Part shown: one piece after another, positions 1-50,103 of the stretch
How the letters are laid out: every line of letters starts with the position of its first letter
How positions within the stretch are numbered: the first letter of the stretch is position 1
From: Pseudobdellovibrionaceae bacterium
Lineage (GTDB): Bacteria > Bdellovibrionota > Bdellovibrionia > Bdellovibrionales > Bdellovibrionaceae
Assembly: GCA_044359815.1 (NCBI GenBank)
Contig: JBIKLL010000009.1
Span: forward strand, 1 to 62,773
Direction of reading: 5' to 3'
Length of the DNA stretch: 62,773 nt
Notes under the pieces: model-generated
The model's database searches: none
Seen by the model: only the letters and a program-made list of their open reading frames with translations
Told to the model about the DNA's origin: nothing
Position numbers and translations under genes: made by a program

Positions 1-7
1 TTTTATA

Positions 8-113
8 AAATGACTCAACACCAGATATGCCCCGCACGCTCGCTGCATGTGTCTAAAAACAGTAAAAACAAATTACCTTTGCCTTTATGCAATACGAGAG
101 ATGAGCTTGCGGT
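8..113. repeat. Family A palindromic element, right half (cut by window start)
   Basis: 103/106 nt identical to 16437-16542; contains motif Q (aaatgactcaacaccagatatgcc...) and partial motif P' (caatacgagagatgagcttgcgg). Confidence 0.9.
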
Positions 114-15204: not shown

Positions 15205-16251
15205 ATGAAGGAAATCTGTTCTGCATTATTAAAGTCAGCAATGACCCTGATCATTTTGATTGGGTTGGTTGGCAAAGCTCAAGCTTCTGGAAATTCCCAG
15301 TTATCAGCACCCACTGGCTATTCGACTGTTAAACCCAAGTCTTCTGCAGCAAAGGCCTCAGTTGCCAAAAATTCTGAAAGTCTGTTTGCTGAAGTGATTA
15401 AAAAATCTCAGGACAGCCAGACAGATGCTTTAATGATCTATCAAGACGGCCAAGTGGTTTATGATTCGCATAGAATCAATCCCAACATTCCCATCAGTGT
15501 CCAAAGCATTACAAAAAGTCTGATAGCCATTGCGATTTTAAAATTGCTCGAAGATAAAAAAATCCCTAATTTGGATCTGCCGATGTATCATTTTATCCCT
15601 GAATGGTATCAAGACTCTGACAGGCAAAAAATCACCGTTAAAATGTTACTGAATCACACCAGCGGGATTTGTGACTGCGATGGTTTTTTAAAACAACCTG
15701 ATTTTATTCAGTTTGCCAAAAAAGCCCCTTTGCAATTTAAGCCGGGGACCGGATTTTTATACAGCACCGTGGCTGTGGCTTTACTGGAGCGAGTGATCAC
15801 CAGGGTAACCCACGAACCTGCCGAATATTATATCCAACAAAATATTTTATCACCCCTAGATATTTCAGGTGTTGAATGGAACTATGATGAAAACAATCAC
15901 ATTCAAGCAGGTGGTGGGATGTTTGCAAGCCCCCGTGATTTGCTTAAAATCGGTGTGATGTTGGCTAATCAGGGTGTGTATGCACAGCAAAGAATTTTGT
16001 CTGAAGCTTCAGTGAAATTACTGTCTACCAAAAGCCAACCCTTTGAAAACTATGGTTTGTTATTTTGGCTTTATAAATCTGCAGGTTCTGAAAAATCTGA
16101 TGTTTTTGCAGCCAGGGGGTATGGCGGCCAATATATCTTGGTGAACCCTTCAAAAAAACAAGTCATCGTCAGGGTTAAAGACCCCAGAAAAATCAGCACT
16201 CAAAACCTCTCTCAAACCGAGTTCCTAGAGCTCACCCAATTAATGCCCTAG
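15205..16251 (+). CDS. Secreted serine hydrolase, beta-lactamase class C-like family
   Basis: SITK (SxxK), LLNHTSG, FKPGTGFLYS, GYGGQ. Confidence 0.9.
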   Translation: MKEICSALLKSAMTLIILIGLVGKAQASGNSQLSAPTGYSTVKPKSSAAKASVAKNSESLFAEVIKKSQDSQTDALMIYQDGQVVYDSHRINPNIPISVQSITKSLIAIAILKLLEDKKIPNLDLPMYHFIPEWYQDSDRQKITVKMLLNHTSGICDCDGFLKQPDFIQFAKKAPLQFKPGTGFLYSTVAVALLERVITRVTHEPAEYYIQQNILSPLDISGVEWNYDENNHIQAGGGMFASPRDLLKIGVMLANQGVYAQQRILSEASVKLLSTKSQPFENYGLLFWLYKSAGSEKSDVFAARGYGGQYILVNPSKKQVIVRVKDPRKISTQNLSQTEFLELTQLMP

Positions 16252-16294
16252 CCCCACAGTTAATAAATTTTTCCTGCAGGCCAGCTTCGCCGTA

Positions 16295-16542
16295 TCTCTC
16301 GTGTTGCGTAAATACAAAGATAATTTTTTTCACTATTTTTAGACACTCGCTAACGGCCGCGGGCTCATCTCTCGTATTGAGTCATTTAGATTAATCAGTC
16401 TTACGATAAATAAATTATCATAAAACTTATTAATCTAAATGACTCAACACCAGATATGCCCCGCACGCTCGCTGCATGTGTCTAAAAACAGTAAAAACAA
16501 ATTACCTTTGCATTTACGCAATACGAGAGAAGAGCTTGCGGT
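16295..16542. repeat. Family A palindromic element, copy 2
   Basis: Outer arms 16295-16346/16478-16530, motif P 16347-16387, inner stem 16377-16409/16415-16447, motif Q 16437-16477. Confidence 0.92.
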
Positions 16543-16565
16543 CCAGATAACAAATTTTAAATTCA

Positions 16566-16764
16566 GATCTGACTCAATTTTTAGAAGCTAAAATTAGAAA
16601 TCTAAATATTCTATTTTGTTAAAATTGGGCCTCTGCGGAGCCTGGACGGCGGGGGCTTGGCCCGAGCAATGAGATTGGCGATTCGAAATCAAGAGCTGTG
16701 CCCGATTTTAATAAAATAGAATATTTAGATTTCTAATTTTAGTTTCTAAAAATTGAGTCAGATC
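16566..16764. repeat. Family C palindromic element, copy 2
   Basis: 65-bp arms 16566-16630/16700-16764 (62/65 complementary) around core 16631-16699. Confidence 0.92.
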
Positions 16765-16787
16765 CAGGAAAGACTTGATCTGTGGGA

Positions 16788-17888
16788 CTAGACATTGAAT
16801 TTGAAAAACATGATGTCGCCGTCTTTGACGACGTATTCTTTGCCTTCTGATCGGTATTTACCGGCTTCTTTGACAGCTGATTCAGATTTCAGAGCAAACA
16901 GTTCATCGCAGTGATAGGTTTCTGCTCGTATAAAGCCCCTCTCGAAATCAGTGTGAATCACACCGGCTGCTTGAGGCGCTTTGTAACCCTTGCGGATGGT
17001 CCACGCGCGGACTTCTTTTTCACCAGCGGTGAAATAGGTGTATAGGCCTAATAATCTGTAAGCTTCCATTATTAATCGGTGCAAACCAGGTTCTTTAGCG
17101 CCCATAGAATCCAAAAATTCCTTTTGTTCATCAGGCGCCAATTGGGCAATTTCTGCCTCCATCGCCGAACAAATAATTAGAGCCAAATTGTTTTCTTGCT
17201 GAGCTCTTTCAAAAACCTGTTTTGTCCAGGCATTGCCTCCTGATTGAAAATCCGAATCTGAAACATTGCAGGCATACAAAACTGGTTTTGATGTCAGCAA
17301 ATGCAGCTCTTTAACAAAGGGCAATTCATGTTCGTTCGCATCCACGCTCCGGGCTGGCAACCCCTTTGCCAAGGCTTCTTGCAAACGCTTGGTCACATCG
17401 TATTCCATTTTAACTTTGGGTTCAGTGGACGACTTAGCGGTTTTTTCGATGCGCTTTAATTTTTTATCAACAGTATCCAGATCAGCCAACATCAGTTCGG
17501 TATTGATGATTTCCATGTCTCGGACAGGATCGACGCTGCCGTTGACGTGAACAATATTAGGATCATCAAAACATCTGACAACGTGAACAATGGCATCTGT
17601 TTGTCTGATGTGACTTAAAAATTGATTGCCTAAGCCTTCGCCTTGGCTGGCGCCTTTCACAATTCCTGCGATATCGACAAATTCAATAATGCTTGGGATG
17701 GTCTTTTGCGGTTTTATAAAATGAGTGATCTTTTCAAGTCTTTGATCTGGCACATTCACAACCCCCACATTGGGATCAATGGTGCAGAAGGGATAATTGG
17801 CGGCCTCGGCCTTGGCAGAAGTCAATGCATTGAACAACGTGCTCTTACCAACATTCGGCAATCCTACGATACCCACTTGCAGTCCCAT
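16788..17888 (-). CDS. ychF: Redox-regulated ATPase YchF
   Basis: GIVGLPNVGKSTLFNAL, NYPFCTIDPN, YVVKDGD; start at MGLQVG. Confidence 0.97.
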   Translation of the reverse strand: MGLQVGIVGLPNVGKSTLFNALTSAKAEAANYPFCTIDPNVGVVNVPDQRLEKITHFIKPQKTIPSIIEFVDIAGIVKGASQGEGLGNQFLSHIRQTDAIVHVVRCFDDPNIVHVNGSVDPVRDMEIINTELMLADLDTVDKKLKRIEKTAKSSTEPKVKMEYDVTKRLQEALAKGLPARSVDANEHELPFVKELHLLTSKPVLYACNVSDSDFQSGGNAWTKQVFERAQQENNLALIICSAMEAEIAQLAPDEQKEFLDSMGAKEPGLHRLIMEAYRLLGLYTYFTAGEKEVRAWTIRKGYKAPQAAGVIHTDFERGFIRAETYHCDELFALKSESAVKEAGKYRSEGKEYVVKDGDIMFFKFNV

Positions 17889-17913
17889 TTGTGCTCCTTC
17901 GCAGTTATAAAAA

Positions 17914-18477
17914 TCAGGTGTTAAATTTAGTCGAAGCGGCTGAAAGGCCCTCAAAAATAAAGCACTCAATCGCATCGGTGGCAAGGTTCAAAAAATCTGT
18001 CAGATTAGATTGCTCATTTTCAGGAAATTTCTGTAACACATAATCAGCTATTTGAAATTCTGGATTTGTGGGTCTGCCAATACCCATTCGCAAACGACTG
18101 TAGTCTTGGGTTCCCAACAATTCATTGATGCTTTTAATCCCATTGTTCCCAGCGGCCCCACGGTTTTTTGCAAAACGGGTTTTGCCAAAGGGCAGTTCGA
18201 TTTCATCATGAACCACTAGCAATTTATCCAATTCAACTTTGTAGTAATTGATAACTTCTGAAACGCTTTCCCCAGATTTATTCATGTAGGTCAGCGGTTT
18301 TAACAAAATGACTTCTTGGTCATCAATTTTGTTTTTGCAAAAGAGCCCCTTGTGGGACTCTTGCCATTTCTTGATCTGCATGCTTTCGGCAAACATATCC
18401 AAGGCCAAAAAACCTACATTATGCCTTGTAAAAGCATATTTGGGACCCGGATTGCCTAAACCAACTATCAGATACAA
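17914..18477 (-). CDS. pth: Peptidyl-tRNA hydrolase
   Basis: LIVGLGNPG, TRHNVGF, KPLTYMNKSG. Confidence 0.97.
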   Translation of the reverse strand: MYLIVGLGNPGPKYAFTRHNVGFLALDMFAESMQIKKWQESHKGLFCKNKIDDQEVILLKPLTYMNKSGESVSEVINYYKVELDKLLVVHDEIELPFGKTRFAKNRGAAGNNGIKSINELLGTQDYSRLRMGIGRPTNPEFQIADYVLQKFPENEQSNLTDFLNLATDAIECFIFEGLSAASTKFNT

Positions 18478-19212
18478 TTATTTCTTGTCTTCTTTTTTAG
18501 CTTCAGGTTTTGCACCAGCGGCAGGAGCAGCAGCACCTGGTTTAGCACCAGCAGCAGCGCCCGGAGCGGCGGCACCAGCAGCAGCGGCAGCATCTGGAGT
18601 CGCAGCAGCGGCGGCGTCACCAGTAGCAGCAGTAGCTGTTGTAGTAAGAGATTCCTCTTCAAACAGATTCACAACCGCAATTGTTGTCTGCGGGGTTGAA
18701 AGCAATTTCACACCTGCAGGGATTGTCAAATCAGACACGTGAAGAGCATCGCCAACACCTAAATGAGAAATATCAGCAGAGAAGTTTTCTGGGATTTCCG
18801 TTGGTAAACATTCAACCTCAACGGTTCTGTTAACCACGTTTAACAAACCACCTTCAGCCAGACCCAACGGCTTACCTGACAATTTAACCTCAACAAAAAC
18901 GCGAACGGCTTTTTTCAGATCCAATGCAAACAAATCTACATGCAATGGGATTCTGGTAACTGGATGAACATTGACGTCTTTCATCAAGACAACAACGTTG
19001 TTCAGTTCTGAATCTGGGCTTTTAAGGTTAAACAAAGCATTGTCATATTGAGAGACATTGAATTTTTTAACGGAATTTTCATCGATCAGAATATTTTTAT
19101 TTTTAACTGAACCATAAACCACTGCTGGAATTTTGCGGCTGCGGCGAAAAGCGCGGCTGTTGTGTTTTCCTATTTCACGAGCTTCAACTGTTAAATCAAA
19201 TCGCTGAGACAT
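18478..19212 (-). CDS. rplY: 50S ribosomal protein L25/Ctc
   Basis: IPAVVYG, HPVTRIPLHVD; prs-rplY-pth synteny; Ala-rich tail. Confidence 0.95.
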   Translation of the reverse strand: MSQRFDLTVEAREIGKHNSRAFRRSRKIPAVVYGSVKNKNILIDENSVKKFNVSQYDNALFNLKSPDSELNNVVVLMKDVNVHPVTRIPLHVDLFALDLKKAVRVFVEVKLSGKPLGLAEGGLLNVVNRTVEVECLPTEIPENFSADISHLGVGDALHVSDLTIPAGVKLLSTPQTTIAVVNLFEEESLTTTATAATGDAAAAATPDAAAAAGAAAPGAAAGAKPGAAAPAAGAKPEAKKEDKK

Positions 19213-24395: not shown

Positions 24396-24531
24396 TAACC
24401 GAAAAGAGACCGTACGACTTTTTCTGTCTACGGTGCGAAAAAAGCCAAACGATGATTAAAAAAGTTAATCGTTTGGTTTTTTTATTTTTCGCACCGTAGA
24501 CAGAAAAAGTCGTACGGTCTCTTTTCGGTTA
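24396..24531. repeat. Family B palindromic element, coreless short copy
   Basis: Perfect 47-bp arms 24396-24442/24485-24531 with aaaagagaccgta...tttttctgtctac; small inner stem 24445-24453/24468-24476. Confidence 0.92.
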
Positions 24532-30296: not shown

Positions 30297-30851
30297 ATCA
30301 AACGCAAATTGGCAAAATGATTTTTCGGTAAAATTCAATATTTAAAATATAGGTCCCTAAATTCCACTCCTTGTGAACACATTTGCGAGCGCGCATGGCA
30401 TATCTGGTGTTGAGGCATAATTTAAAAGCGCAATTTGTAACTGAATCTGATTTGCTTTTCTGAGTCCAGAATTTGTATTTTTAAATATGGTTATATTTTT
30501 TATACCTTGTGAATACTTGCTAACGGCCGCAAGCTCATCTCTCGTATTGAGTCATTTGGATTAAATAGGTTTATGATTAATTATCATAAACCTATTTAAT
30601 CCAAATGACTCAGCACCAGATATGCCATGCGCGCTCGCAAATGTATTCACAAGGTATAAAAAATATAACCATATTTAAAAATACAAATTCTGGACTCAGA
30701 AAATAACCCTTGATTGATTAATTGTTTTTAAGCTGATGACTCAATACGAGAGATGAGCTTGCGGCCGTTAGCAAGTGTTCACAAGGAGTGGAATTTAGGG
30801 ACCTAAATTTTGAATTTTACCGAAAAATTATTTTGTCAGTTTGCGTTTGAT
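30297..30851. repeat. Family A composite: outer element (Q'...P') containing an inner element of opposite orientation
   Basis: Outer arms 30297-30342/30806-30851 (4 mismatches) and perfect 30350-30380/30775-30805; Q' 30381-30418; P' 30736-30774. Confidence 0.92.
30456..30703. repeat. Family A inner element (P...Q)
   Basis: Perfect 61-bp arms 30456-30516/30643-30703; perfect 30-bp inner stem 30548-30577/30583-30612. Confidence 0.93.
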
Positions 30852-32856: not shown

Positions 32857-33918
32857 ATGTCTGTGGATTCACTGCTGAAATTCATTTTTAACCACAACAC
32901 TGCCATTATTGAGGTGTTGATTGCGCTGACCGCCTTGGCGGCCTTATTTTTATCCTTCAGATCTTTTATGACTCAGGATACTGGCGGTGGGGATTTTTCA
33001 AAGCTTGAAGAAACTTTGAAAAAGCTCTTAGAAAAAGCTGGCACAGTGACTGCCAAGGCTCCGGTTGGGGCTTCTGCCGCGGCGCCGAGTTCTGAAAGCG
33101 GAAATCTGCTGGCTGAAATTTCGACCCTCAAAACAGAGCTTGAAGACAAAAAGAAAATGATCGATGAAATTCAAAAATCTGCTGAAGGCGGTAAGGGCGC
33201 TGGTGCTGGAATTTCGCCCGAAGAAAAATCAAAACTGGAAGCTAAAATAAAAGAGCTTGAAGGCAAGCTGTCAGAATACGAAATCATCAGTGAGGACATC
33301 GCTGATTTATCAAAATACAAAGAACAAAATGTTAAATTAAAAGCTGAACTGGAAGATCTGAAGAAAAATCAAACAGCAGCGCCAGCGGCCGCACCTGCAC
33401 CAGTGGCACCAGCACCGGTGGCACCCGCACCAGCACCAGTTTCTGCGCCTGCGGAAGCTCAGCCACCAGCGGCTGCCCCTGAGCCCGTAGCTGCGGCGCC
33501 TGTTCAACCTGCCGCCGCGAGCCCTGCTCCTGCTGCTCAGGCGACAGATGCTGGCAGTGTGGTCGACGATGATTTAATGAAAGAGTTCGCTGCTGCCGTT
33601 GAAAATCAGAAAAAAACTGAATCAGAACAAAAGGCAGCTCCCGCTCCAGCCGCAGTTGCGGCTCCAGCAGCTGCGCCAGCCGCAGAACCAGTGGGTGAAA
33701 TTGATCTAGGCGCTATGGATGTTGATAAAATGGCCGCAGAGGCTGCTAAAATCACAGACACCTCTGGACCAGAGATTTCGTTTGAAGAGGCCGTTGGCAC
33801 AAATTTGAACGAAGACAAATTGTTAGCTGAAGCTTCTGGGATGGAAGGCACTAGTTTGGCCGAGGAAAAAAAGCTTTTAGGTCAGTTTGAAGATTACGTT
33901 AAAAAAAACCAAACTTAG
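32857..33918 (+). CDS. Membrane-anchored coiled-coil, Pro/Ala-rich hypothetical protein
   Basis: N-terminal TM, coiled coil, APAP low-complexity linker, acidic tail. Confidence 0.75.
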   Translation: MSVDSLLKFIFNHNTAIIEVLIALTALAALFLSFRSFMTQDTGGGDFSKLEETLKKLLEKAGTVTAKAPVGASAAAPSSESGNLLAEISTLKTELEDKKKMIDEIQKSAEGGKGAGAGISPEEKSKLEAKIKELEGKLSEYEIISEDIADLSKYKEQNVKLKAELEDLKKNQTAAPAAAPAPVAPAPVAPAPAPVSAPAEAQPPAAAPEPVAAAPVQPAAASPAPAAQATDAGSVVDDDLMKEFAAAVENQKKTESEQKAAPAPAAVAAPAAAPAAEPVGEIDLGAMDVDKMAAEAAKITDTSGPEISFEEAVGTNLNEDKLLAEASGMEGTSLAEEKKLLGQFEDYVKKNQT

Positions 33919-39054: not shown

Positions 39055-40392
39055 ATGACACTGATTGGATTATGGCTTTTTATTTATATTCAGTATAAGC
39101 ACTTGCCCCTGGCCGCGGCGGCAGAGGTTGCTGTGCCTGTTGGTCAATCGCAGAGTCAATCCCAGCAGATCACTGAAATCAACAATGCAGACCTGGAATC
39201 CATTGGTCCTTTGTTGTTTCAAGGCAGAACTAATTATTGTTATTCGTATGTGGCGGCGGATTTGATCAGTCAAGAATTAGGCGAACGGGTTTCGCCGGCG
39301 CAATTGGCGCTGACCTATCAGACATTTAATTATCAAAAAAATAAGCACGATACCACTGGCGAAATTGCTCTAAAGGGCAATGGGGGATCAGCAACCAGAG
39401 TCATTGAAATGATTCGCAATAGGGGATTTTGCAAGGACAGTGATCAGTATTCAAGATATTTTCAAACATGGATCGAAAAGCCCAAAAAATTTGCCTTACC
39501 AGATCCCCAGATTCCACCTGTGCAATTCAGAGCCAGAGTTTTTGAAAATGTCAGAGTGTTAGTTTCAAATAAAAATTATTTACGGCAGGTTGATCATCTG
39601 GGAACAGATTGTCGGATTTTAAACTTTGCAAAAAGCAACAACAAGTCTGCAGCTATTTATGAAACCTATTATCAATGTGCAAGCTTGCTTAAAAGCCATG
39701 ATGACCAAAGCCGGTCTGCGGGTACCCAACATCAAGGGGTAAAATTAATCGGGCCTGTGCCTTGGTTTGAAGGTGATTCGCAAGCGGGTGGCAGAGTGTG
39801 GCAATCAGGTCATTACATTGTGATGCCGGAGTCGCAGGATTTGCAGAGTCTTTTGCAGCAGGATTTACCAGAGCCTTTTAAGGGTTACACTTTGATTCAA
39901 ATAAACAGCAGCGGGGCTGGTCGACAAATTGCCAGCGTCACAGAGTCAGATGACGAAGCTGTTGGCATTTACACTCCATTTAAGGCAGTGGGATCGCGCA
40001 AAAATAGAGGTTCAGATTATTTTCCGGATAATGGCCAGGTTGGCAAATACAGTATGTTAGTGAATTCTTGTCAGCAAAAACTGTGGTTACCAGAAACAGT
40101 AAAAATAAATTTAAAATGTGATTTTGCAAAGCAAGGATCCCTGCAGACACACAACTCAGATTCTATTTTAGGAAATTTAGACAGATTGTTGGAATCAGGA
40201 AAAATCGTGGGATTTAGCCACAAAGCTACCGAGATGAATCACATCATCACAGTGATTGGCCGCAAATGTTCAGGGTCAAAACCCAGTGACTGTGTGTATA
40301 CGGTCAGAAATTCAGCCCAACCCAACGAAAAATTTAAAACCGCAGAATTCATTCTGCAAAAAGGCCTTTGCCTGTCCTGGCTGCAAAAGTGA
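39055..40392 (+). CDS. Putative papain-fold cysteine peptidase
   Basis: QGRTNYCYSY, HIITVIGR and VRNS match Gln/Cys/His/Asn of C1-like peptidases. Confidence 0.65.
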   Translation: MTLIGLWLFIYIQYKHLPLAAAAEVAVPVGQSQSQSQQITEINNADLESIGPLLFQGRTNYCYSYVAADLISQELGERVSPAQLALTYQTFNYQKNKHDTTGEIALKGNGGSATRVIEMIRNRGFCKDSDQYSRYFQTWIEKPKKFALPDPQIPPVQFRARVFENVRVLVSNKNYLRQVDHLGTDCRILNFAKSNNKSAAIYETYYQCASLLKSHDDQSRSAGTQHQGVKLIGPVPWFEGDSQAGGRVWQSGHYIVMPESQDLQSLLQQDLPEPFKGYTLIQINSSGAGRQIASVTESDDEAVGIYTPFKAVGSRKNRGSDYFPDNGQVGKYSMLVNSCQQKLWLPETVKINLKCDFAKQGSLQTHNSDSILGNLDRLLESGKIVGFSHKATEMNHIITVIGRKCSGSKPSDCVYTVRNSAQPNEKFKTAEFILQKGLCLSWLQK

Positions 40393-40696
40393 CCGTATTA
40401 CTTTTTCTGTCTACAGCGCAGAATTGAAATCGAAAACCTAGAAAACCAAAATGCCACTTATAAATCTAATTTTACTTTGCAATCTTAAAAACTCAAACAG
40501 CGGGCGCAAAGCTGCGCGCATTTAAGTGCTGAAAGCATGTAAGTCATCCGCGCAGCTTCGCGTCCGAACTCGTTTTTAAAACTGCAAAGTAAAATTAGAT
40601 TTATAAGTGGCAACTTGGTTTTTTAATCTTTAAGACTTTTTATTCTGCGCTGTAGACAGAAAAAGTAATACGGTCACTTTTGACGGTCACTTTTGC
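40384..40696. repeat. Family B palindromic element, full copy
   Basis: Perfect 41-bp terminal IR 40384-40424/40642-40682, perfect 30-bp middle arms 40452-40481/40583-40612, core 40480-40584, 13-nt terminal duplication 40683-40695. Confidence 0.93.
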
Positions 40697-44674: not shown

Positions 44675-47191
44675 TTAAAAGTATTGTGTTTCATCAATGA
44701 TCCATCGCATGTTTCGATCTTCGTCTTTTCCTAATTTAAGCAGTACATCTTGAATTATTGGATCTTGCGAGTTGCTGGCTCTGAGTGCTCTGGTGGCAAT
44801 ACTGCTAATATTTAAGTCCGCATCATATACTCGTGAAAGCAAAGCTTTCAGTATTCTTGGGTCTTGCGATTTTCTATTTCCAAGTGTTTTGGTTGCTGAA
44901 AAGCGAATGTATTGATGGGGATCCTTTGTCGAAATAAGCAGAGCTTCCAAAACTCTTGGATCTCGCGAATTTGAAATTGCCATGGATCTGAGTGCTGCTA
45001 ATCTTACTTCGTTATCACTATCTATCATCGCATCAAGCAGAGCTTCGATTATTCTAGAATCTTGTGATTTCCATTCTCCAAGAAATATTATTGCGTTCCT
45101 GCGAACAACACGTTCACTTTTATCTTTGAATGCAACAAGCATTGCCTCCAAAACCCTTGGATCCTGCGATTTGCTATTTCCAAGTATCCAGCATGCTTGC
45201 ACTCGGTTGGTTCCATCTCTATCCTTCATCGCCACCAGCAAAGCGTCCATAACTCTTGGATGTTCGGTTCCAAATGCGCCAAGTCCTACGATGGCCATAA
45301 AGCGATCTTGTGGTAAATTGCCTTTCGCAATAGCCAGCAGGGCTTCCAATACTCTTGTGTCTTGAAATTTGATTTCTCCGATTGCTCTTAATGCCGTCGC
45401 GCGAACAATGCCGTCGCTATCTTTAGTTGCATCGAGCATTGCCTCAAACACTCTTGGGTCCTGTGATTTGCTATTCCTAAGTTCATTGGTAGCCGTCTCT
45501 CGAACACGATCACTATAATCCTTCATCGCAGCTAGAAACACTTCCATAACACTGTCGTTTAAAATGATAAACTCACTCAGCAGACGCAATGCTCTTACTT
45601 GGGTTTGCTGGGTTTTTGAATAATCGTAACTACGGCCAGAAGTCTTTATCAGATCAACAAATCTTGTCCTGCTTGAAAAATTTGATTTTCTCTTTTGGGC
45701 ACTTGGATTTCCGCCAAGAGCTAAATTTTTTAAAAGATCGATATCTTCAGGATGCTCATTAAGCCGTTGCTTAATAATCCCGTCGATTCTGGGATCTCGG
45801 CCATATCCAAAACCCTCGATATTGCCATTGATTTCGTATATAAATTCAATTTCTTGATGACTGAGGGGCTTTTGGTTTTTGTGCTTTTTCTCAATGGCTG
45901 TCAGCATTTTCATATCGGCATCTTTTTTTAAATAGATTTTTCCCTCATTTCCAAAATCCTTTAATTTATCTTTTAAAATATTTGTTTTCGCAATTTCACC
46001 ATCAAGCTCTTGTGACCGTTCAACACCCCGAATTTCTCCGATTTTTGTATTTTCCATTCGGATCGCGATGCGTGGATGTGCGGGTTCCCCGGTAACATCG
46101 TTGCTATAATAAACATAAAAATCACCACGCATCAGCTGCGATTCCGCTGTTGCTGTCCCTGCCGTGCACCAACCTGTGCCCCTATTGGCCAGGGAATCCT
46201 CTAGCGGTTTGGGATCAGATCCCATCGGATATTTTACCCAATGGCCAGTGGTGATGGATTTATCAAAATGCTGACTAGGAAGCTGTTTGATCGCGTGGGC
46301 ATACCAATGCCCAAACTGCGCTTTGTTTTTAATGATATTGATCAATTGAGGACCTTCAGTTTGTTTTAACGTATTTTTATCCAAGGCTTCTGCAGCCCAA
46401 TCAACAACATTGGCTAAGGCCTCAATTTGCTTTAACGTATCTTTATCCAAGGCTTTTACAACCCAATCAACAACATTGGCTAAGGCCTCACGATTTAAAT
46501 CCGGAAAGGCCGCCACTGTGTCATTTGTACGCTTAGCAAAGCTGCCTTTTTCTTTATCGAATTTTCCTAATTTAACAACTCCACTGATGATCCAAACTTT
46601 CGTCCACACAGGGTACATACTTGAATCGGACGACAGCAAATAATCAATCCAGGGGGTTAATGAATCTATTTGTTCCTTTTGATGCATCCTTAATAACTGA
46701 TCGATAGCCTCTTTGGTGACAGTGATATCACCGTGTCCGCGTTCACGAGCGATTTGCTTTTGCAGTTCAATGTATTTTTCTGGTAATTCCTGGATGATAT
46801 AGGGGGCGATCATGGACTTTGTGATCTGCTCGCGCTTTTGATCATTCTTGCTCACTCGTGGATAAATGTAATTTAAATAGTCGATGTATTTTTGGAAAGC
46901 CGTCAACGGATCAGCTTCCCTTTTGCCAGAGGCATTTGCTGCAACTTCGACAACTTTTTTTTCGCTGATCAGCTTTGGGCTGGTTTCAAATAAAAACCTT
47001 GCCTGGTCCCTGTTGGTGCCCTCGGCAAATGCCCCATGGCATTTACTGAGTTGGGTTTGCGCGACCACTGGTGATCCCAGACCTAATAAAATCACAACCT
47101 GTGACATTGTGACCAAAATTGTTCGACACCTGTTATTTAACAACAAATTAAACCTCAGTAAAATGAATCTAAACCATGCTAAAACGCTCAA
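44675..47191 (-). CDS. Large hypothetical protein: conserved 'GTGWCTAG' domain plus C-terminal HEAT repeats
   Basis: GTGWCTAG...FYVYYS...PRIAIRM...EIRG; about eight SQDPRVLEAL...D.D..VR repeats. Confidence 0.75.
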   Translation of the reverse strand: MSVLAWFRFILLRFNLLLNNRCRTILVTMSQVVILLGLGSPVVAQTQLSKCHGAFAEGTNRDQARFLFETSPKLISEKKVVEVAANASGKREADPLTAFQKYIDYLNYIYPRVSKNDQKREQITKSMIAPYIIQELPEKYIELQKQIARERGHGDITVTKEAIDQLLRMHQKEQIDSLTPWIDYLLSSDSSMYPVWTKVWIISGVVKLGKFDKEKGSFAKRTNDTVAAFPDLNREALANVVDWVVKALDKDTLKQIEALANVVDWAAEALDKNTLKQTEGPQLINIIKNKAQFGHWYAHAIKQLPSQHFDKSITTGHWVKYPMGSDPKPLEDSLANRGTGWCTAGTATAESQLMRGDFYVYYSNDVTGEPAHPRIAIRMENTKIGEIRGVERSQELDGEIAKTNILKDKLKDFGNEGKIYLKKDADMKMLTAIEKKHKNQKPLSHQEIEFIYEINGNIEGFGYGRDPRIDGIIKQRLNEHPEDIDLLKNLALGGNPSAQKRKSNFSSRTRFVDLIKTSGRSYDYSKTQQTQVRALRLLSEFIILNDSVMEVFLAAMKDYSDRVRETATNELRNSKSQDPRVFEAMLDATKDSDGIVRATALRAIGEIKFQDTRVLEALLAIAKGNLPQDRFMAIVGLGAFGTEHPRVMDALLVAMKDRDGTNRVQACWILGNSKSQDPRVLEAMLVAFKDKSERVVRRNAIIFLGEWKSQDSRIIEALLDAMIDSDNEVRLAALRSMAISNSRDPRVLEALLISTKDPHQYIRFSATKTLGNRKSQDPRILKALLSRVYDADLNISSIATRALRASNSQDPIIQDVLLKLGKDEDRNMRWIIDETQYF

Positions 47192-49745: not shown

Positions 49746-50103
49746 CAAAAAGAGACCGCAAAAAGAGACCGTACAGCTTTTTCTGTCTACAGAGCGCAAT
49801 AATAAAAAACTGAAAAGCCATAATTCTGTTTATAAAAATAATCTATATTCACAGTTTTAAAAACGAGTTCGGACGTTAAGCTGCGCGGATGATTTACATT
49901 CTTTGATTACATAAATGCGTGCAGCTTTACGCCCGCTGTTTGAGTTTTTAAGATTGTGAATATAGATTATTTTTATAAACGGAATTATGGCTTTTCGGGG
50001 TTGTTGTTTTATTATTGCGCTCTGTAGACAGAAAAAGCTGCACGGTCTCTTTTTGCGCTGTAGACAGAAAAAGCTGCACGGTCTCTTTTTCGGTCTATTT
50101 TTG
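49746..50103. repeat. Family B palindromic element, full copy with core inverted relative to the 40.4 kb copy
   Basis: Terminal IR ~49759-49807/50007-50055, middle arms 49812-49853/49955-49996, core 49852-49956 (95/105 identical to reverse complement of 40480-40584), terminal tandem duplications. Confidence 0.93.

Follow-up and report, generated by a model that had tools for sequence, protein, structure and literature searches.

How does a long palindrome keep, in copy after copy, two segments of its arms that pair with each other only in part? The question is raised by an intergenic repeat, Family A, near 16.3 kb in a 62,773-nt stretch of DNA (referred to here as the window), which is contig C20 of a 2.95-Mb assembly (125 contigs, 41% G+C, rated 91% complete) of an uncultured Bdellovibrionaceae bacterium whose DNA is found in at least 24 lake-water metagenome runs. 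The copy is flanked by two convergent genes, which code for a protein with a beta-lactamase fold (15205-16251, plus strand) and for the GTPase YchF (16788-17984, minus strand); the latter shares 78% identity with YchF from a Pseudobdellovibrio genome.

The copy at 16.3 kb and its relatives in the window

A preliminary description of the window had proposed the layout outer stem, module P, inner stem-loop, module Q, outer stem. All of these parts are present in the sequence at 16291-16541, and the strings given for P and Q match this copy as well as another one at 30.5 kb. With q and p denoting the reverse complements of Q and P, respectively, the features are as follows.

16291-16346, plus strand: outer left arm, whole (sequence reading)
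16291-16313, plus strand: end of the outer left arm; what is left of the outer q module, truncated and P-like; pairs with 16516-16541 (36-copy alignment)
16314-16346, plus strand: left spacer arm, near-invariant among the main nested copies (alignments)
16347-16385, plus strand: module P, type 1 (GCGGG state) (sequence, unit alignment)
16386-16438, plus strand: inner stem-loop of the 51-nt class, hypervariable across copies, with arms that remain complementary (consensus fold, covariation)
16439-16472, plus strand: module Q, type 1 (CCCCGC state), a diverged reverse complement of P (sequence, unit alignment)
16473-16541, plus strand: outer right arm, whole (sequence reading)
16473-16515, plus strand: right spacer arm; pairs with 16314-16346 (alignments, DNA fold)
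16516-16541, plus strand: end of the outer right arm, a truncated p (reverse complement of P, type 2) (repeat finder, alignment)
1-113, plus strand: a further nested copy of which, owing to the start of the contig, only the right half (Q, spacer, p) is present; 97% identical to 16437-16542
30297-30851, plus strand: complete nested copy of the second composite type (repeat finder)
30297-30380 and 30775-30851, plus strand: outer arms of the 30.5-kb copy (repeat finder)
30381-30418 (q), 30517-30555 (P), 30556-30604 (hairpin), 30605-30642 (Q) and 30736-30774 (p), plus strand: inner parts of the 30.5-kb copy (repeat finder)

The outer ends of the 16.3-kb copy had been recognized as partial module copies, and indeed 16516-16541 matches the reverse complement of P, while 16291-16313 is P/q-like. 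This copy is not the archetype, since canonical copies extend on both sides with a full q and a full p; in the alignment of 36 near-full copies, the left-arm position of the canonical ones is occupied by a full q and an additional arm of about 65-85 nt. Judged from this alignment, the 16.3-kb copy is a truncated, worn member of a larger element. Truncation of its outer q and p, together with the P-like character of the left remnant, explains the clean outer stem that had been described.

Two candidate products of the locus were rejected. An open reading frame (ORF) of 50 codons starts at the ATG of Q (16439-16591); a ribosome-binding site was not seen by eye, and the frame would be broken by the 13-nt insertion variants of Q. 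A search of the window against Rfam 15 gave no match at the gathering score, and thus no known RNA family; the below-threshold matches were generic microRNA-precursor hairpins only.

Copy number and architecture in the genome

A BLAST search with the element against its own genome yielded 227 matches, which merge into 93 loci, a number well beyond chance expectation. As 24 of these loci touch a contig end, the repeat breaks the assembly, and the number of 93 is a lower bound. Most of the 36 near-full-length loci extend to the left with a full q and to the right with a full p, and past q and p most of them carry an additional palindromic arm on each side. Searching the whole genome for the cores of P and Q (up to two mismatches) revealed 268 modules in 99 clusters, 37 of which lie within 300 nt of a contig end. 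Twelve clusters consist of P-Q alone, three are odd, and 35 show the order q-P-Q-p or its reverse complement, the remainder being partial or single-module clusters. In these 35 clusters one unit is nested in another in the opposite direction, which bears out the recursive structure suggested for the 16.3-kb copy.

The basic, simple P-Q unit comprises an arm, P, a variable hairpin, Q and a second arm. In the nested form, which is the commonest, a simple element contains a second, oppositely directed unit at its centre (q-P-hairpin-Q-p), so that either strand presents one P/Q bubble of each polarity. Two nested types occur: the copy at 16.3 kb represents the one with short conserved spacers, and that at 30.5 kb the one that encloses an entire simple element. 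Measured over 45 complete loci, the full palindrome spans a median of 405 nt (range 204-599). The arms beyond the outer modules vary in length from 48 to 164 nt and are locus-specific, yet palindromic within each locus. At the 45 palindrome boundaries, where no empty site defines the ends, neither a common end nor a target-site direct repeat was observed. A role of the hairpin arms as guides was considered and rejected, as 12-nt words from the arms occur essentially only in the units themselves.

Constant modules and variable stems

P and q align over their full length at about 70% identity (by eye), and on the basis of this similarity P and Q are taken to be diverged inverted versions of one module of about 38 nt. 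Both are nearly fixed. The 17-nt core of P is exact in 115 of the 137 genome matches found at up to three mismatches, and one of two exact 31-nt versions of P is present in 44 of the 53 P-hairpin-Q units. Q has two or three main forms and an optional 13-nt insertion (5 of 53 units), which by eye forms a small stem-loop. With so little variation in P and Q, every copy has the same mismatches between them, as had been proposed. The hairpin between P and Q, by contrast, occurs in 46 variants in the 53 units. Across 30 nested copies of the main type, next to no variation is seen in q, P, Q, p and the two spacers, whereas the central hairpin and the outer arms vary. For a member of the known class of bacterial palindromic repeats, Family A thus has two mismatched arm motifs of unusual constancy. 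Neither P and Q nor their complements showed any tendency to fold on their own (-2.3 to -3.3 kcal/mol; z-scores of -0.03 to +1.26 versus shuffled sequences).

A 255-nt stretch of the window is predicted to fold as a single long hairpin, with an energy as DNA of -67.4 kcal/mol, compared to -21.5 ± 3.6 kcal/mol for shuffled sequences (z = -12.9; 0 of 200 shuffles as good). The corresponding energies as RNA are -108.7 kcal/mol for the plus strand and -144.2 kcal/mol for the minus strand.

Covariation was analyzed in a gap-free alignment of those 25 of the 53 units that have the 51-nt hairpin. The RNAalifold consensus comprises 43 pairs, with 97.8% of the cells paired. It confirms the partial complementarity of P and Q, in the form of 19 pairs (columns 8-34 with 98-125) with fixed unpaired columns between them. 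Sixteen of the 43 pairs have changed on both sides, as compared to 9.1 ± 1.2 in shuffled alignments (0 of 500 reach 16) and to at most 6 covarying pairs in controls with slid partner columns. The covariance analysis over copies thus found that the mismatches do not vary at random and that covariation is significant. The preliminary description had located this covariation in P and Q themselves, which was right only in part. The states of the two modules are associated without exception in 48 units, GG occurring with CCCCGC in 36 units and AA with CCATGC in 12, with no cross-combinations. Nevertheless, 10 of the 13 pairs in the GC-rich part of P/Q never vary and a single one covaries (column 15 with 116; G-C in 18 copies, A-U in 7); it has two states, which may go back to a single event. 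The junction contributes another two covarying pairs (A-U 19, U-A 6; U-A 24, C-G 1). The strong signal resides in the inner hairpin, with 13 covarying pairs, some of which show three or four pair types, and in the outer arms.

The changes are almost exclusively double, with 86 double-changed cells versus 3 that are changed on one side, and G-T or G-U intermediates are nearly absent. Structured RNAs commonly show G-U intermediates. The near-absence of one-sided changes and of intermediates suggests that, at the DNA level, one arm serves as the template for the other, and it fits such copying better than slow compensation of the kind seen in RNA. Outer arms that are locus-specific and yet palindromic, and that vary in length without a common end, likewise fit arm-to-arm copying. 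In 29 of 30 nested copies, the strand reading P-q-p-Q forms the RNA of higher stability; G-U pairs occur on both strands, 254 versus 179 in total. As the nested copies share ancestry and both strands carry G-U pairs, a strand preference was not concluded.

Placement at the 3' ends of genes

Placement was determined with our own crude set of ORF calls, with a minimum of 110 codons. Of the 51 loci that could be classed, none lies inside a called ORF; 33 are situated between convergent, 15 between tandem and 3 between divergent genes. Convergent gaps account for 410 of the 2476 gaps of the genome, and the enrichment of the loci in such gaps is pronounced (binomial p = 2e-14). The palindrome starts at a median distance of 8 nt past the stop codon. 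At 27 of 73 gene 3' ends a palindrome arm reaches into the final bases of the ORF, at several loci symmetrically on both sides. No ordinary terminator was detected in 16252-16787, the interval between the two genes that flank the 16.3-kb copy; in three of the seven relatives examined (L019, L026, L029) an ordinary terminator hairpin was seen by eye after ychF. The orientation of the element relative to the flanking genes looks random (7 to 5, from a hand tally of nested copies in tandem gene contexts).

At several convergent pairs the arms overlap the last 5-17 nt of both ORFs symmetrically; examples are C2:870-1307, C6:20965-21563, C62:1937-2253 and C124:63799-64229. Such symmetric overlap of both ORF ends would mean that the repeat may supply both stop codons together with the last codons.

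A related strain and the distribution of Family A

Scanning metagenomes for the P motif retrieved eight contigs, all from one assembly. Their unique flanks match eight loci of the present genome at 86-95% identity (best flank alignments), indicating that they come from a closely related strain. All eight orthologous loci are occupied by the element in both strains; there is thus no sign of recent movement in this sample, which is biased, as the contigs were chosen by their P motif. Inspection by eye of two pairs with the same orientation (L013/C87 and L015/C113) showed hardly any difference in the interior apart from the hairpin; in the flank immediately adjoining L015/C113, about 1 base in 10 differs. 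These comparisons suggest that the sequences of P, Q and the spacers are constrained, or that a biased exchange preserves them.

There are also structural differences within the eight pairs. The interior has the opposite orientation in three pairs, deletions around the centre or at one end are seen in three, a different hairpin in two, the other nested type in the same shell in one, and a difference in the 13-nt insertion in one. Within the present genome, all four gametes occur at 21 of 21 polymorphic site pairs among 30 nested copies. Short-read contigs from four metagenomes (DNA data only) break inside the repeat, and the repeat parts of metagenome contigs sum to a depth of 250-1350, as compared to about 8 in the flanks. 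Since the identical stretches on either side of the hairpin approach the short-read length and contigs break in the repeat, the four-gamete, inversion and hairpin-swap signals may in part be assembly artefacts. Three results fit within one read and do not depend on the assembly: that the hairpin arms pair, that the states of P and Q are associated, and that each outer arm adjoins its unique flank.

Beyond this pair of strains, a BLAST search of 40 relatives with the core gave no convincing match, the one hit being a 46-nt alignment at 80% identity (E = 9.6e-5), and none of 100 additional genomes from the same family was matched by a covariance model (R1). A genome contig collection lacked the P motif, and a viral contig collection lacked both the P and the Q motif. 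As far as these sequence searches reach, Family A appears to be restricted to one lineage. A narrow search of the Bdellovibrio literature on repetitive extragenic palindromic sequences found no description of Family A, and earlier publication is possible. Family A combines a high copy number with placement at gene 3' ends, near-invariant P, Q and spacers beside hypervariable but complementary stems, and lineage restriction.

Candidate enzymes and permissive background

The genome contains one RAYT-like gene (contig C8, 9504-10136), whose best match is NF047646 (REP-associated tyrosine transposase; 72.5 bits, cut-off 80). It is flanked on both sides by a repeat family different from Family A; as the assembly is 91% complete, a second RAYT gene could be missing. 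The flanking repeat belongs to a third family, which is represented in the window at 24396-24531, 40384-40694 and 49748-50090 and whose module forms a bulged stem-loop. The presence of the same module on both sides of the RAYT-like gene corresponds to the classical REP/REPIN-RAYT arrangement. The copies of this third family at 40.4 and 49.8 kb enclose long inner palindromes.

Genes on contigs C23, C48, C56, C47, C49, C100, C125 and C8 encode eight close paralogues (87-93% identity to the query copy) of a Y1/HUH-like protein of 204 aa that contains an HLH motif. No conserved non-coding ends and no adjoining Family A copy were found for these genes and, lacking conserved ends, they do not look like insertion sequences. 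Sets of such Y1-like genes are present in 20 of the 40 relatives, in up to 17 copies, and none of these relatives has a convincing Family A match. Models for IS110, IS630-type DDE_3 and DDE_Tnp_1 had no match in the genome, which has a single rve match (contig C40), with no repeat beside it, and two tyrosine recombinase matches. Among the ORFs of eight small contigs bounded by the repeat, no transposase was seen by eye. Y1/HUH enzymes are the only candidate class seen in the genome, and no cognate protein is linked to Family A.

SbcCD is a nuclease that cuts long hairpins. SbcD was not found in the present genome, and in the order (this genome and the 40 relatives) a match over the model cut-off was obtained in 1 of 41 genomes; for SbcC there was a weak match, confined to the N-terminus. 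The clade may therefore lack the hairpin nuclease that limits long palindromes, and its apparent absence may explain why palindromes of such length are tolerated.

Comparison with known palindromic repeats

REPINs are doublets of REP sequences which form hairpins and are associated with RAYT transposases, and the part of Bertels & Rainey 2011 (PMC3116915) available to us describes compensatory changes in their spacers. Family A likewise has two conserved inverted modules and a less conserved spacer whose sides change in step (97.8% paired, 16 covarying pairs); it would also form a long hairpin in single-stranded DNA or RNA, and it is extragenic, present in high copy number and confined to one lineage. 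It differs in that P and Q are not the same sequence inverted but two fixed, diverged versions, that they do not fold alone whereas REPs fold as imperfect palindromes, that the element is about four to five times longer and nested, and that the RAYT-like gene is flanked by the third repeat family rather than by Family A. From E. coli, the available portion of Ton-Hoang et al. 2012 (PMC3333891) reports that TnpA-REP binds single-stranded REP, needs the conserved mismatch in the stem and recombines parts of BIMEs, which are mosaics of y and z REPs and in whose conserved linker IHF binds. The likeness to BIMEs is one of architecture only: both are mosaics of two related module types in inverse orientation with variable linkers, and by analogy an enzyme that recombines mosaic parts could create variability like that in Family A. 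Unlike REPs in BIMEs, the modules of Family A have no internal hairpin and no definable GTAG-like foot, their order is same-same-inverse-inverse (q P Q p) and not strictly alternating, and whole elements are long palindromes that reach the stop codons.

Replication can copy one arm of an imperfect inverted repeat onto the other by template switching at quasi-palindromes, as outlined in the part of PMC7202029 that was available. Such switching would produce double changes without intermediates and extend palindromes outward, both of which resemble the situation in Family A. It is, though, a mutational mechanism and not an element family, and on its own it would erase the P/Q asymmetry, which persists in 53 units.

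The Correia/NEMIS and ERIC elements are non-coding palindromic repeats of 100-150 bp which reside in transcribed intergenic DNA, can fold in RNA, have larger forms that arose by internal insertions, and possess defined ends and a TA duplication. For Family A neither ends nor a duplication were found, and its conserved part is internal. It also departs from MITEs, which have fixed ends with terminal inverted repeats: its arms measure 48-164 nt with locus-specific outermost parts, and in the incomplete genome no parent insertion sequence with matching ends was found. In contrast to integron attC sites, the copies are single and located between ordinary convergent chromosomal genes rather than in cassette arrays. 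Family A has the architecture of known bacterial palindromic repeats, yet it is not a REPIN, a BIME or a MITE in the strict sense, since its modules are not hairpins, no RAYT gene is flanked by it, and fixed ends, a duplication and a parent element were not found.

Possible origin and role

The explanation that we favour as a whole, and which we think could equally well be right or wrong, is that Family A is a lineage-specific, non-coding interspersed palindromic repeat akin to BIMEs, REPINs and MITEs, in which P and Q form a selected recognition bubble. Selection would keep the two modules as a sequence-specific, deliberately imperfect bubble, to be read on folded single-stranded DNA by a trans-acting protein, with Y1/HUH enzymes as the candidate class. 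The element would have spread into hairpin-prone intergenic DNA at gene 3' ends, its own apex included. Its stems would stay perfect through copying of one arm from the other, as in template switching at quasi-palindromes; the same copying may extend them out to the stop codons, and exchange between copies may shuffle the hairpins. Besides the copy number, placement, constraint and pairing described above, this reading draws on the precedent of TnpA-REP (PMC3333891) and on the spacer changes of REPINs (PMC3116915), as far as the available parts of both papers go, and on the presence of a RAYT-like and eight Y1-like genes. Against it stand the lack of a cognate protein linked to Family A, modules that do not fold by themselves as REPs do, fixed ends and target duplications that were looked for and not found, orthologous loci without a sign of recent movement in a sample biased by its P motif, a seemingly random orientation, and recombination signals that may in part be assembly artefacts. 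A secondary role for the host as 3'-end hairpins is possible and compatible with this reading.

The main rival, which we regard as somewhat unlikely, turns that secondary role into the primary one. Family A copies would be RNA 3'-end modules adopted by the host, serving the two convergent transcripts as bidirectional terminators or as stabilising hairpins, and either strand of the nested form would fold into the same structure. Much of the placement data agrees with it, namely the 33 of 51 classed loci between convergent ORFs, the palindromes that run almost from stop codon to stop codon and overlap 27 of 73 gene 3' ends, and the lack of an ordinary terminator in 16252-16787, with one seen by eye after ychF in three of seven relatives. 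So do the conserved arms with an A run before and a T run after the stem, the high predicted stability of both strands as RNA (-189 and -203 kcal/mol), the interior that is conserved between lineages, and the free orientation, as a symmetric function allows. However, tolerated insertion also predicts placement at 3' ends. The covariation lacks the G-U intermediates usual in RNA (3 one-sided versus 86 double-changed cells), canonical terminators do not take the form of a 400-nt hairpin whose base is AT-rich, and the invariance of P, Q and the AT-rich spacers exceeds what a mere hairpin needs. The invariance of P and Q, irrespective of pairing, would suit double-stranded binding sites for a nucleoid or topology protein, with P and Q as half-sites and palindromy as incidental, in the manner of BIMEs for IHF and gyrase; the binding of IHF in the conserved BIME linker, described in the available part of PMC3333891, is a precedent. 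We consider this very unlikely, as a duplex site does not require the strict complementarity that the stems between and around the modules keep (97.8% of cells paired), the P and Q states covary, and there is no candidate protein.

The long inverted arms, the high copy number and the intergenic location would also be expected of an ordinary MITE, i.e., a non-autonomous element derived from a DDE insertion sequence, with long inverted repeats at its ends and a parent that would be missing from the incomplete assembly. In a genome that is 91% complete in 125 contigs, with 24 loci touching contig ends, insertion sequences could indeed be unassembled. Such an origin is nonetheless distinctly unlikely, given that the conserved parts are internal and the outermost arms variable, that arm length ranges from 48 to 164 nt with no duplication or common end seen, and that DDE_3, DDE_Tnp_1 and IS110 had no match, the sole rve match (C40) being without a repeat beside it. 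We give hardly any credence to a site-specific inversion switch, in which q/Q and P/p would serve as exact interleaved inverted repeats and a recombinase would flip the segments. The interleaved order q-P-Q-p and the interior inverted between strains in three of eight orthologous pairs speak in its favour. Yet the flipped segment is non-coding and nearly palindromic, so that a flip changes almost nothing; the products expected from inversion at q/Q or P/p are not among the observed module orders, inversions can stem from recombination of the long arms or from assembly ambiguity, and the genome has only two tyrosine recombinase matches.

Parts of these readings can be combined in a bolder one, which we judge unlikely. 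Family A would then be neither a REPIN nor a MITE but a self-maintaining population of palindromes, of a new kind, which spreads into hairpin apices, its own among them, and grows outward by arm copying to the stop codons. P and Q would be two deliberately unlike arms that selection holds constant as a strand-marking bubble for a putative single-strand-specific protein, the host would rely on the elements as 3'-end structures between convergent genes, and they would be tolerated for lack of SbcCD.

In model bacteria, a palindrome of some 400 nt is unstable; the present genome retains about 90 such elements, which occupy the interval from one stop codon to the next. One genome contrasts constant modules with stems that change freely and yet stay paired, a natural test of how imperfect palindromes remain imperfect, and of whether "compensatory" changes taken as evidence of RNA structure can arise by DNA copying alone. 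Should the P/Q bubble have a protein reader, this protein would be a new partner in the recognition of single strands; should it have none, Family A still cautions searches for RNA genes that rely on covariation.

Other repeats in the window

A second palindromic repeat family, with a GC-rich conserved centre and AT-rich arms of 60-65 nt, is located at 16566-16764 and 205-377 of the window. BLAST detected about 55 loci of this family genome-wide, and it has no Rfam match above threshold. By eye it adjoins Family A at no fewer than four places, twice in the window and on contigs C46 and C111. Three further stretches of the window are repetitive in other ways. Positions 44738-45553 comprise 6-7 repeated units with a period of 99-102 nt and 60-78% identity, probably part of a gene for a repeat-domain protein, and a 66-nt tandem duplication (91% identity) occupies 46356-46487. 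GCA/GCG-rich periodic stretches are present at 18512-18613 and 33373-33687; the former lies inside the ORF 18478-19212, which matches ribosomal protein L25/TL5, and probably encodes an Ala/Pro-rich tail.
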